Shown here piece after piece: positions 33,083-44,197 of a stretch of 64,000 nucleotides of DNA. Source of the stretch: an uncultured Planctomycetota bacterium (lineage in GTDB: Bacteria > Planctomycetota > Planctomycetia > Isosphaerales > Isosphaeraceae); contig CAWGMQ010000004.1 in assembly GCA_963823665.1 (NCBI GenBank), forward strand, positions 384,001 through 448,000. Direction: 5' to 3'. How positions within the stretch are numbered: the first letter of the stretch is position 1; the number at the start of each line of letters is the position of its first letter. Made by a program: the position numbers and the translations under genes. Below the pieces are notes generated by a model. It made no database searches, was not told the origin of the DNA, and saw only the letters and a program-made list of their open reading frames with translations.

Positions 33083-33110
33083 GCGCTCGTTTTTTGCTCG
33101 GCGCGCATCT
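33083..33110 (+). promoter_or_regulatory. Putative ECF promoter, copy 1 (autoregulatory position)
   Basis: GCGCTCGTTTTTTGCTCGGCGCGCATCT: GCTCG-N15-GCATC, about 23 nt before the ECF ATG at 33133. Confidence 0.7.
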
Positions 33111-33132
33111 GTTATGGTGGCATCTGGCGAAG

Positions 33133-33690
33133 ATGCCGCGCCCACTGCGAGAGACCGGTGCCGTGGAAGAGTTTCGTCCGTATCTCAAGTTACTGGCCCG
33201 TCTGCACTTGGACCCGCGGGTGCGCGGACAGGTGGATCCCTCGGACATCGTTCAGCAAACGTTCCTGGCCGCCCACGCCAAGCAGGCGCAGTTCCGGGGA
33301 GCAACGGACGCGGAACGCGCCGCGTGGCTGCGGGCGATCCTGGCGAATCACCTCGCGCTGGCATTGCGGAAGTTCGGACCGAAGGGGGGCGGCCGGGTGC
33401 GTTCGTTCCAGGATGACCTGGACCGATCGTCGGCGCGATTGGAGGGGTTTCTGGCGGCCGATCATTCGAGCCCGAGCGAGCGGGTGATTCGGTCGGAGCA
33501 GTCTGTACGGCTGGCCGGTGCGCTTGCCAAGTTGCCCGAGGATCAGCGCACTGCCTTGGAGCTGCGACATCTGGAAGGCCTTCCTGTGCCGGAGGTGGCC
33601 CGGCGCATGGAGCGGACGGTTCCGGCCGTGGCGGGTCTGCTGCATCGGGGAACGAAGGCTTTGCGCGGGCTGATGCAGGAATCGGACTGA
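33133..33690 (+). CDS. ECF sigma-70 factor, kinase-associated
   Basis: YLKLLARLHLDPRVRGQVDPSDIVQQTF; LPEDQRTALELRHLEGL...VAGLLHRG. Confidence 0.92.
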   Translation: MPRPLRETGAVEEFRPYLKLLARLHLDPRVRGQVDPSDIVQQTFLAAHAKQAQFRGATDAERAAWLRAILANHLALALRKFGPKGGGRVRSFQDDLDRSSARLEGFLAADHSSPSERVIRSEQSVRLAGALAKLPEDQRTALELRHLEGLPVPEVARRMERTVPAVAGLLHRGTKALRGLMQESD

Positions 33691-33939
33691 GTACGAGGGT
33701 CGAGAGCGATTTCGCGAGAACGGGCGGGTATGGAGCGGGAGAGTCGGGCTAAGCCGATGAAAGCGGGGTGCATATTTCAGTTTCTAGGTCTACGAGGAAG
33801 TGCTGAACCTGTTGCACGGTCGAGCCCGGTGGCTGCAAGGTCAATAATGAACCCAGGAAACCAGGAAGGGAATCAGTCGATCAAACACGTCCGTCGTTTC
33901 CGGCTCAGCCCCAGAGCGAGACAGGAGCATGGCGTTGAC

Positions 33940-34041
33940 GTAGGTCAGGCTTCAGCCTGACGGAGTGCGGAAGTCAGATTCTCAATCGGCAAATCTGCGA
34001 TGCGGATGAAGTCGAACTCGTTGGGCTAAGGCCCGACCTAC
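33940..34041. repeat. GTAG-family REP doublet (REPIN-like inverted pair)
   Basis: GTAGGTCAGGCTTCAGCCTGAC at 33940-33961 and an inverted copy at 34020-34041 (reverse complement GTAGGTCGGGCCTTAGCCCAAC). Each is GTAG plus a palindrome. Confidence 0.8.
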
Positions 34042-34059
34042 ATCGTGTGAGACTCTTCG

Positions 34060-40761: not shown

Positions 40762-43700
40762 ATGTTCACATTGAACGCGGCACTGTCAGAACGCGGGCGA
40801 AGATCGACTTCCGGACTGGCGGCAGGGCGGGAGGCCACAACCAGCGAAGCTGCGGTAGTATGCCGGCGGCCGAAGGCGAGGCGCAGGCGGCCGCTGGCGC
40901 CGGAGCTCCTGAGCTTGGAACACAGGTGGCTGCTTTCGACTTTCGACGTGACGAGCACCGCCGATGACGGGAGCACGGGCACGCTGCGGTGGGCTGTCGC
41001 GCAGGCCAATTCTGCAACGTCGCCCAGCACCATCGAGTTTCAACTCGCCAGCACACCCGCCACGATCACGTTATTGAACGGGCAACTGGAGCTGAGCAAC
41101 ACCGCCAACGCGACCACGATCGACGGTCCGGCGCGAGCCTGGTCTCCATCAGCGGCAATGGGGCTGGCCGCGTATTCGCGGTCGACAAAGGCGTGGCGGC
41201 TACGATTTCAGGCCTCACAATCACAGGGGGCTCGACGACGTATCTGGGCGGCGGACTCTACAATTACGGCTCAGTGACGCTCACGGGCTGTACGATCAGC
41301 GGCAACTCCGCGGGCAGCGCTAGCACCGTGGGCGTTGGCGGCGGCCTGGATAACCGTGGGACTGTGACGCTTGACCATTGCTCGGTCAGTGATAATTCCT
41401 CCGCTTCGTCCGGCCATGCCAAGCGCGGCGATGTCGCCGGCCTGGCCAATACTGGCACGGCCACGCTCACCGATTGCACCATCAGTGGCAACGTGGCCAC
41501 CGCCGGCGTCGGCGGTCTGTGGAGTGCCGGCACGGTCAACCTCACCGACTGTGTGATCAGCGGCAACTCATCCGGCCTGTCCAACGGCGGCATGGCCACT
41601 CTCACCGGTTGCACGATCAGCGACAACTCCGGCGCCGGGATCGCAAGCGGCAACGGGTATCAGATCGGCGGCCTCACGCTCACGGACTGCACCATCAGCG
41701 GCAACTCCGGCGGCGGGCTCGCCAACTTTGGAACTGCCACTGTCGCCGATTGCACGATTAACGGCAACTCCGCCCCATACCGCGGTGGCGGGGTGAACAA
41801 TTTTGGCACGGCGAGTCTCACCGCCTGTACGATCAGTGGCAACTCGGCACCTGCCGGCGGTGGCGTTTACAACTATCAAGGCGTTAATTCCTACAGTGGC
41901 CACGTTTACGCCGGCACGTTGACGCTCAACGACACGATTGTCGCAGGGAACAGCAACGGTCAAGCCACCGCCAGCGATATTGGCGGTAACGCGTCCAGTA
42001 TTCTCACCGGCATGTACAACCTGATCGGCACCGGCGGCACTGGTGGCCTCACGGATGGTAGCAACGGAAACATCGTGCTCACGAGCCTTGCCAATCTGAA
42101 CCTTGGCCCATTGGCGGATAACGGCGGCCCGACCCAGACCATGGCACTTCAGACCGGCAGCGCGGCCATCGGCGCGGGCACCACGGCCGACTACCCTGGT
42201 ACGAACACCCCGATCACCACCGATCAGCGCGGCGAACCGCTCGACTCACCCGCCGACATCGGAGCCTACCAGGTCCAGTCCCGCGCCGACGACACTCGCT
42301 GTGGCTTCCATTGGGCCGGTCACGCCCGATCCACGCAACTCACCGGTCGCATCCGTGAGCATCACGCTGAACGAGCCTGCACGCACGGGCGGCTTTGACA
42401 CCAGCGCGCTCTCTTTAACCGATAACGGGGGTCCGAACCTCATTACCAGCGCGGTTCTCGACCACCCTCGACTCTGGTTCGACGTATCTGATTAATGGTC
42501 TCGGCGGCCTGACGACTGCCGAGGGATCTTACGTTCTGAGCGTGAACGCCGCCGACATCCAGGACCTCTCCGGCAACCCCGGCGCCGGCTCCAATTCGAT
42601 CTCCTGGCTGATGGACACAACCCCGCCCGTCAGCACAGTCGACCCACTCTCGTCGCAAACGACATCGACCAGCTTTACAGTCTCCGTGACTGCGTCCGAT
42701 CCCTCGAGCGCAGGCGGTAGCAGCGCCTCCGGCGTCGCCTCGATCGCCATCTATGACTCAACCAACGGTGGCGCGTTCAAGCTGTTTACCACGGTCGCGG
42801 CTTCCCAACCGTCCGCAACCTTCTCGGGCGTCGCGGGCGACACATACAGCTTCTACAGCATCGCCACCGACAACGTGGGCAACGTCCAACCCACTCCCAC
42901 GTCTTCCCAGGCCACGACGCAAATAGTCGCGCCGGCAATTCTTCAGTTCGCCGCTTCTCAGTTCACCGCGAACGTCACCCAGGGCACCGCAAGCGTCGTT
43001 ATCAATATCAATCGCAGTGGTAATCTGAGCGCTACCTTCACCGTCGAGATCTCGACCTCGGGCGGCACGGACGTCGCCGAGTTCGCCAAGACGATTTCTT
43101 TTGCTTCAGACGTGACCAGCCAGTCTGTCACCATCCCGATCATCAACAACGGCCAAGCCGGCCAGGCCGACGAGCGCGTTGCGCTTGCGCTCTCCTCCCC
43201 CAGTAGCGGGGCCATGCTTGGTGCTACGGCGTCGACCACCCTTGTGATTCACGACAACAACCCGCCCCCGCCACCTCTTGTCAGCGTCGCATCCGCGACG
43301 ACCGAAATGATGAAAGTCGGCAAAGGCAAGAAAGCGATGAAGGAGTTGGTGCTTGTGCTTCAGTTCAGCGGCGTACTGAACCAAACCGCCGCTGGCGACG
43401 TGAACGCCTACGATCTCGCGCCGCTTATCACGCTCAAGGCCACGGGCAAGGGCAAGAACCGCAAACCTGCGACGACAAAACTGGGCTCCCCCGTCCCGGT
43501 GGCCTCTGCCGTCTACTCCTCCTCGAACAACGAGGTGACGCTTACACCAAGGACCGCGCTGAGTAAATCAAAGCCCGAGGAGCTGATCGTCAACGGTGCG
43601 CTCTTGACCGACACGCTCGGCCGCGACCTGGACGGCGCCGACAGCGGAACAGCCGGAAGCGACTACATCGCGACAATCAAATCCGACCGTCTCACGATCG

Positions 43701-43804
43701 GCGGAATTCCACTTGCGCGCACAGCGAACCCGAGCGCCGCTGCCGTCGATGTCTTGCTCGCTACCTACGCGCTCGCTGACATCAGGCGCCGCCGGGGTGG
43801 CTGA
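40762..43804 (+). CDS. Secreted right-handed beta-helix (choice-of-anchor Q-like) + Ig/Calx-beta protein (frameshifts near 41128, 42280, 42460)
   Basis: LLSLEHRWLLS export motif, VTSTADDGSTGTLRWAV, (T/S)LTxCTISGN repeats, LGPLADNGGPTQTMAL, DQRG...DIGAYQ. Confidence 0.85.
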
Positions 43805-43923
43805 CCGCTCCGGCGTGGCCTTGAGACAACCTCGGCAAATTCGCATGAAGATCAAATGACATGCGTCGTGGTACCAACGACCGGTTTCGCAACTCCGTCC
43901 GAAACGTTGCGTTTCCAGGCCCC

Positions 43924-44056
43924 TCCGAGCCAACCCTGGCGAATGACCGCGAGCGCCAACACGCGTACAACGCCGCGTGCGCGGCTACAGTGGCGGTGCT
44001 TGTGGGACGACGTCCGGAGACTTCTTGATAAGGCAGCTCGCGGCGCACATTCGTGA
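43924..44056 (+). pseudogene. Internally deleted copy of the 3' end of the 34060-37591 kinase
   Basis: SEPTLANDRERQHAYNAACAA joined to QWRCLWDDVRRLLDKAARGA, versus SEPVLANDRERQHAYNAACSA (~37090-37153) and QWRHLWADVRKLLNRAASGA (~37481-37540). Confidence 0.85.
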
Positions 44057-44169
44057 GTCGGTCGCACAATGCCTGGCGGCCCTGACGCGTTCGCGCTGGC
44101 GCGAGCGCAGGGGCCAAGGACGAAGCTCTCGACCGCGCGGGGTTCGCTCTTCCAATAACTCAGGAATGA

Positions 44170-44197
44170 GCGCTCGTTTTACGCGCGAAGAGCATCC
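44170..44197 (+). promoter_or_regulatory. Putative ECF promoter, copy 5
   Basis: GCGCTCGTTTTACGCGCGAAGAGCATCC: GCTCG-N15-GCATC, upstream of the ATG at 44274. Confidence 0.7.

Follow-up and report, generated by a model that had tools for sequence, protein, structure and literature searches.

According to Casas-Pastor et al. (2021; PMC7826278), the ECF59 and ECF217 groups of extracytoplasmic function (ECF) sigma factors, the latter split from the former, are planctomycete sigma factors without an anti-sigma factor and with a kinase encoded at position +1. The kinases of subgroup ECF59s2 usually have one transmembrane (TM) helix and sometimes tetratricopeptide repeats (TPRs), while subgroup ECF217s1 adjoins a Planc_extracel protein; in the available text of that paper no member of either group is characterised (PMC7826278). 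In group ECF43, EcfP of Vibrio parahaemolyticus and EcfK of Xanthomonas citri have the membrane Hanks-type kinases PknT and PknS, respectively, as neighbours (PMC8103513, PMC8999054, PMC13147305), and for ECF59 a serine has been named as the predicted phosphorylation site (PMC8103513). Here, a related locus is described in a 64,000-nt stretch of DNA (the window) from an uncultured Planctomycetota bacterium of the Isosphaeraceae (contig CAWGMQ010000004.1, positions 384,001–448,000), where five copies of one bipartite motif accompany an ECF sigma factor gene, a Ser/Thr kinase gene and three genes for proteins with an LExLExRxLL-type motif (LExLExR genes). It is considered probable that the five copies are promoters (−35 GCGCTC, −10 CATC, 17-nt spacer) for the ECF59-like sigma factor encoded next to them, which would transcribe its own gene and the three neighbouring genes for probably exported proteins after its predicted phosphorylation by the kinase.

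The initial annotation had described GCTCG and GCAT separated by 15 nt at 33085, 37615, 40481, 40691 and 44172, and all five copies are confirmed, all on the forward strand and all intergenic. Copy 1 (33083–33109; −35 GCGCTC at 33083–33088, −10 CATC at 33106–33109) is predicted to be the promoter through which the ECF gene is autoregulated, with a predicted transcription start (+1) at about 33119. Copy 2 (37613–37639) is the predicted promoter of the gene at 37686 (predicted +1 at about 37649); copy 4 (40689–40715), the weakest of the five with CATT as its −10, is that of the gene at 40762 (predicted +1 at about 40725); and copy 5 (44170–44196) is that of the gene at 44274 (predicted +1 at about 44205–44206). 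Copy 3 (40479–40505; predicted +1 at about 40515) is a predicted promoter ahead of a 35-codon remnant open reading frame (ORF, 40565–40672). Placement before the ECF gene or an LExLExR gene, as first claimed, therefore holds for copies 1, 2, 4 and 5 and fails for copy 3, which is followed by a ribosome-binding site and the remnant ORF only; this copy precedes copy 4 by 210 bp and may be a tandem upstream promoter for the 40762 gene, or vestigial. No sixth copy is found after 45830 or ahead of the kinase gene.

The motif is rare elsewhere. GCTCG-N15-GCAT has nine matches in the window, compared with 1.34 ± 1.13 in shuffled sequences. In the genome (16.46 Mb, 12 contigs), GCTCGTT-N13-GCAT has 17 matches, five of them within the 11 kb of the locus, whereas its reversed control has 11. 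For the strict form GCGCTCGTTWT-N11-GCAT there are six, namely the five copies and one within a long ORF, and two single matches occur across 120 other genomes of the family. Since matches are so few in genome and family and five stand at one locus, the motif is local and not a dispersed repeat. Sites resembling copy 1 (core at least 9/10, extended 16/20) number four in the 11.2-kb locus and four in 2.23 Mb of related loci, a density comparison made post hoc. Soil short-read contigs, from runs that may share a sampling campaign with the source assembly, are identical to the assembly over copies 1, 3 and 4.

A large regulon or genome-wide repeat was considered and rejected: GCGCTC-N16-GCATC has 73 genome matches versus 60 when the spacer is 3 nt longer, so that the two-box pattern is not enriched elsewhere in the genome; the reversed control (10 matches) is misleading because of codon bias. 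Seventy of the 73 matches were inspected, of which 57 lie inside predicted genes, four at the locus and nine elsewhere, the last including one CRISPR repeat, two missed ORFs and three candidates. These three (L287, L295 and L301) are intergenic GCGCTC-N17-CATC sites in promoter-like context and represent candidate distant targets. A CRISPR-like array at L298 (G000:C10 near 181100) has a repeat that incidentally contains the −35 hexamer GCGCTC. A search for Sigma-70 promoters returned none.

The same architecture recurs upstream of related ECF genes. A total of 160 related sigma loci were retrieved, 159 were anchored and 147 were kept after near-duplicates and short flanks had been dropped; the DNA around the closest orthologues (75–95%) lies outside this sample, and metagenome relatives reach at most 60% among the matches listed. 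An unseeded Gibbs search of the 147 upstream regions gave GCGC(C/T/A)C-N17-CG(T)C and, at a distance of ten bases, T(−1)A(+1)GG; flanking bases included, the pattern reads CGCGC(t/c)C-N17-CG(T)CT...TAGG, and other Gibbs runs also gave an upstream A-tract. The resulting two-block matrix, scored here on its own training set, reaches at least 9 bits in 94/147 upstream regions, compared with 3.6% of shuffled sequences and 11/147 in-gene windows, and the spacer is exactly 17 nt in 93 of the 102 sites scoring at least 7 bits; enrichment of the motif family ahead of orthologous ECF genes, which the initial annotation had proposed as a check, is thus observed. The boxes occupy −36 to −31 and −13 to −10, counted from a conserved purine, and the family context of the start is T(−1) in 55% and purine(+1) in 92%, for which the ribosome site may partly account. 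Copy 1, which is outside the training set, scores 16.4 bits and stands at the modal family distance, 153 nt ahead of the codons of a D-P-S-D motif in the sigma factor, while copies 2, 3, 4 and 5 score 11.5, 13.1, 5.4 and 14.4 bits, respectively. The closest sequenced relative, L132 (69%), likewise has GCGCTC/CATC. A start 5–8 nt after GCATC had been proposed at first; the start now predicted lies about 10 nt after CATC.

The bases of the motif vary with the residues of the sigma factor. In a set of 96 sigma–promoter pairs, among which kin are not independent, the strongest covariation joins L76 (numbering of the local sigma factor) with −12 and −13, and A46, N72 and I69 with −11; the other strong pairs are residue 83 with −15, V152 with −30, H171 with −32 and A167 with −31. 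By alignment to the 1or7 chain (offset 3), L76, A46, N72, I69, H171 and A167 correspond to RpoE Asn84, Lys56, Asn80, Ile77, Phe175 and Arg171, and the same RpoE residues are named as determinants for the same bases by Todor et al. (2020; PMC7776599). At the Asn84 position, Asp goes with CG in 53/54 cases, Asn with TG in 13/15, His with GC or TC in 8/8, and Ala, Gln, Glu, Leu, Gly, Tyr or Met with CA in 14/17; the local sigma factor has Leu at this position, for which there is a single training example, and CA at all five sites. A quick tree built from the 96 proteins requires five changes for CA, at least two of them forced by strongly supported branches, so the link between CA and the residue does not reflect one inheritance. 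In leave-one-out use of the residue code, 87 of 92 promoters have their cognate sigma factor ranked within the top fifth, a figure inflated by kin. A T-run after G(−30) is also seen with other Val152 sigma factors, and so the spacer may be partly read. Because its bases vary in step with DNA-reading residues, the motif is most likely the promoter of the local sigma factor. The initial proposal of an autoregulatory −35/−10 promoter of the resident ECF, placed also before LExLExR genes, is supported by enrichment before orthologous ECF genes, lack of enrichment elsewhere in the genome and covariation. The motif, its position and its covariation with sigma residues come from sequence comparison, by which a private promoter of the ECF59-like sigma factor with a usable specificity code is well supported.

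The residue code also ranks the 26 related sigma factors of the genome as candidate readers, which bears on whether a paralogue elsewhere, such as L021, or several paralogues together read the copies. With 26 such sigma factors available and a few intergenic matches elsewhere in the genome, this deserves consideration, and the local sigma factor comes first of the 26 for copies 2–5 only narrowly (15.0 versus 14.5 for L021); yet among the 26 it alone has GCGCTC-N17-CATC ahead of its own gene, L132 agrees in both boxes, and GCGCTC/CATC accords with the read-through N-termini of P0006 and P0246. Reading by a paralogue is accordingly held to be highly improbable. A further alternative would make the element a weak intrinsic terminator, an RNA hairpin or the palindromic operator of a dimeric regulator. 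Copies 1–3 were indeed flagged as a short hairpin followed by a T-run, and GCGC stands at both ends of some copies. Terminator-like sites, however, number 15 against 10.1 ± 4.0 in shuffled sequences, folding is not unusual (z-scores −1.0 to +0.1), Rfam gives no match, and no family-wide dyad is found at matching centres, with only a small excess at two of 18 centres (0.27 versus 0.24, z 3.6; 0.24 versus 0.22, z 2.6); moreover, a terminator or operator leaves the sigma-residue covariation unexplained. A structured RNA was rejected on the same folding and Rfam results, and the terminator, hairpin and operator explanations together are largely refuted and scarcely credible.

The origin of the copies is probably related to local duplication. 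It had been suggested that copy 1 shares the motif alone with the others, in favour of selection over simple duplication; this argument does not stand, as copy 1 has 11–14 of 17 spacer bases in common with them; over the 12 mid-spacer bases, 7–9 are shared, compared with 3.75 ± 1.74 in random family pairs and 4.9 in pairs of the same variant. Since copy 1 also shares the spacer, copying contributed to the copies. Copies 2 and 4 have a common leader of 103 bp (79% identity) and the regions of copies 3 and 5 share 129 bp (77%). Duplication relics adjoin two of the copies: 40202–40380, beside copy 3, is 79% identical to 46211–46389, the 3′ end of a DinB-family gene, and is a trace of local rearrangement, while 43926–43994 (+), upstream of copy 5, is 84% identical to the kinase 3′ end at 37093–37161. 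From these relics and from the lack of a real gene behind copy 3, it could be argued that only copy 1 is functional and that copies 2–5 are unselected passengers of promoter–leader duplications. This explanation is regarded as unlikely, as against it all ten copy pairs agree in 6/6 bases of the hexamer and in 4/4 or 3/4 of the tetramer, but over the upstream 40 bases nine of the ten are at chance level; at other loci (L136, L160, L183, L228 and L229), the boxes match the sigma factor of the respective locus and the spacers are unrelated. By these comparisons, the target promoters were probably copied as a promoter–leader module and then kept by selection. In the same region, two 77-bp direct repeats with 94% identity follow directly after the 37686 gene (40075–40239), and a pair of similar small genes stands in tandem at 46280–47353 (−), the first of them with a DinB_2 match.

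Local regulons of this kind exist at a minority of relatives, and their generality is partial. In a stricter test, self-like extra sites within 10 kb were found at 7 of 51 other loci versus 1.6 expected (Poisson 0.002), and at higher stringency four were found versus 0.4 expected (Poisson 0.0008). For instance, L087 has the sigma factor, the kinase and then its own promoter variant ahead of a delta-60 LExLExR gene, like the window locus, and L185 has an extra self-like site at a divergent LExLExR gene. An LExLExR gene lies in range at 30 of 124 sigma loci, the window locus included, and by inspection L350, L198, L228 and L229 match; L228 and L229 are paralogues of the same genome, with GCGTGC/CGTC and GCGTGA/TGTC, respectively, upstream both of their own gene and of the next LExLExR gene. 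Where the exoprotein gene is first in its operon, the −10 follows the sigma residue by eye (L416 and L227, Asp with CGTC; L423, Asn with TGTC). A scan with the family matrix before LExLExR genes is weak (9/38 versus 13% background) because the GCGTGA subclade is missed by the matrix. The idea that the motif is a property of exoprotein genes was rejected, as relatives of the 37686 protein were examined at 20 loci and the exact GCGCTC/CATC pair preceded the LExLExR genes at none, and the giant LExLExR gene at 55404 also lacks the motif. Other elements were seen near such genes: at L164, three LExLExR genes share GCGC(A/C)A-N17-CGTT-TCAC, unlike the promoter of the local sigma factor; and at L415, L419, L420, L421 and L426, exoprotein genes 3′ of kinases share an element around CTGCGC(G/A)CC(G/C)G, which adjoins TIGR02999-type and TIGR02984-type sigma factors alike.

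The ECF sigma factor gene (33133–33690, +) encodes an ECF59-like protein of the TIGR02984 subfamily, as judged by the TIGR02984 profile and ortholog alignment; TIGR02984 is presumed, from the group descriptions, to be equivalent to ECF59. By ortholog alignment, ATG 33133 and GTG 33163 are both possible starts. An out-of-frame ATG upstream (window 33114–33165) reads MVASGEDAAP, resembling how orthologues P0003 and P0012 truly begin; orthologues P0001, P0002, P0243 and P0245 have the same start frame as the window, and because several orthologues share it, the start was moved by a real indel in the lineage. The 80 relatives of the ECF from genomes are nearly all from planctomycetes (two are labelled Alcaligenaceae), the closest being from Isosphaeraceae. 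The Hanks-type Ser/Thr kinase gene (34060–37591, +) begins 370 bp after the ECF gene and shows Pkinase and TPR matches, with one predicted TM helix (residues 382–400, hydropathy 2.3) followed by the TPR repeats. Across the related loci, a kinase lies just downstream of the ECF in 106/119.

The three predicted target proteins share an Arg-rich N-terminus and the LExLExRxLL-type motif. The 37686 gene (37686–40013, +; 775 aa) encodes a delta-60 (DUF5122) beta-propeller (TIGR02608, PF17164) with a C-terminus of repeated modules rich in Ser/Thr/Gly, and has full-length relatives at 51–79% identity. The 40762 gene (40762–43804, +; about 1000 codons) has the motif as LSLEHRWLL, beta-helix-like repeats, choice-of-anchor Q and Calx-beta (NF041518, PF03160); it is probably a single gene with three assembly frameshifts near 41135, 42281 and 42465, and a long-read error is likely at 42281 because one short-read contig (depth 3.4) disagrees with the assembly there, at a dinucleotide run. 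The 44274 gene (44274–45830, +; 518 aa) encodes LExLExRxLL, a delta-60 beta-propeller and the tail P-V-L-L-D-S-P...K-x-R-R. The N-termini of the three proteins have no Pfam or NCBIfam match, and none to PF07595 (Planc_extracel) at E up to 1, and the two intact proteins contain no hydrophobic signal stretch; the LExLExRxLL motif bears a likeness to PF07595, and a literature search on this N-terminal motif found nothing relevant. Many LExLExR proteins also share a C-terminal tail, A-P-L-V-L-D-S-P-x-(L/F)...S-L...K-(K/R)-R (window 45760–45830), which is present at L225, L227, L419, L420, L421, L429, P0125, P0126 and P0134, has no Pfam or NCBIfam match, and is a candidate planctomycete sorting signal without a transmembrane helix. 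Elsewhere in the window, a second module (51017–55068, −) consists of a TIGR02999 sigma factor (183.5 bits, above the cut-off) and a kinase-WD40 gene in two pieces, and diverges from the giant LExLExR gene (55404–63908, +), which is without GCGCTC/CATC; a Kinase-nSTAND1-FGE-sulfatase protein is encoded at 23976–27572 (−), its start apparently truncated by the assembly.

In the proposed mechanism, the sigma factor would transcribe from copy 1 in positive feedback, probably reading on into the kinase gene, before which no copy stands, and would fire copies 2, 4 and 5 for the three target genes. The TPRs would sense conditions outside the membrane, and the membrane kinase would phosphorylate Ser37 of the sigma factor, as predicted from synteny and the presence of Ser37. 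In alignments to the SigH and RpoE chains, D35-P-S37-D occupies the position of the DAED motif, with Ser37 in place of its Glu, and 120 of 124 relatives likewise have Ser there. The beta-propeller and beta-helix proteins would then probably be exported.

Several points weigh against this account, in addition to the scoring of the family matrix on its own training set, the kinship within the covariation set, the single Leu example and the small lead over L021. The local ECF is filed as TIGR02984-like with 176.1 bits, just below the curated cut-off of 183.75 (next family 59.3), and the kinase gene is split in the assembly by a frameshift near 35650–35690, across which no reads were found. In an exact test on 10 bases, 48 loci had 15 extra sites versus 10 expected, 44 of 51 relatives are without an extra site, and the automatic cognate test was passed by just 3 of 18 neighbouring LExLExR genes at other loci. 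As for the kinase step, DPSD retains two acidic residues; a review states that ECF groups apart from ECF43 keep acidic residues and may work differently (PMC8999054), EcfK also uses linker sites (PMC13147305), and the available texts of the literature surveyed on kinase-linked ECFs contain no demonstrated case of serine phosphorylation of a sigma factor that keeps an acidic DxxD.

Planctomycetes have many kinase-linked ECFs (26 relatives in the present genome), for which the literature surveyed offers no characterised member and no complete promoter. Given a promoter, named targets and a code from residues to bases, the question of serine phosphorylation in ECF59-type sigma factors becomes addressable by a plain reporter; from the code, targets can also be predicted for many paralogues, and it supplies sets of sigma–promoter pairs that may be orthogonal. 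More tentatively, and with some doubt, ECF59-like sigma/kinase pairs may form an orthogonal switchboard, in which private promoters are set by a few residues, secreted-protein genes are wired in by copying the core promoter, and the kinase acts through serine phosphorylation with the acidic DxxD kept. If so, each kinase would turn on neighbouring surface or secreted proteins by that route.

An autoregulated ECF with a kinase partner and neighbouring targets is a known logic. Like EcfP and EcfK, in the sources as available, the window sigma factor is encoded beside a membrane Hanks-type kinase and has a phosphorylatable residue at the DAED position of sigma2.2. In ECF43, the residue is Thr and the motif around it carries little charge (STTA, QTTA, QATE), whereas the local sigma factor has Ser between two kept Asp residues; the window sigma factor belongs to TIGR02984 and not to the TIGR02999 of ECF43, which is absent from its 25 best families, and the outputs differ. 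To ECF59/ECF217, as far as their descriptions are available, it is alike in host, kinase at +1, lack of an anti-sigma factor, one TM helix, TPRs and the Ser in sigma2.2. In the available text of Casas-Pastor et al., a full promoter is lacking (for ECF217 and ECF62 it is "not conserved"), as are a residue–base code and target genes, unlike at the window locus; the literature describes no promoter for ECF59-type sigma factors beyond a "conserved TC in −35", with which GCGCTC agrees. The clades of Todor et al. included planctomycetes (19 genomes; PMC7776599), and because of this their datasets may already hold the motif. Compared with their general code, as far as it is available, the local motif agrees in geometry (−13 C, −11 T, −10 C, −31 C) and the sigma factor in its specificity positions, while the −35 GCGCNC contrasts with the TGTAAC-like consensus of their Table S1 (PMC7776599), and two strong pairs, V152 with −30 and residue 83 with −15, go beyond that code.

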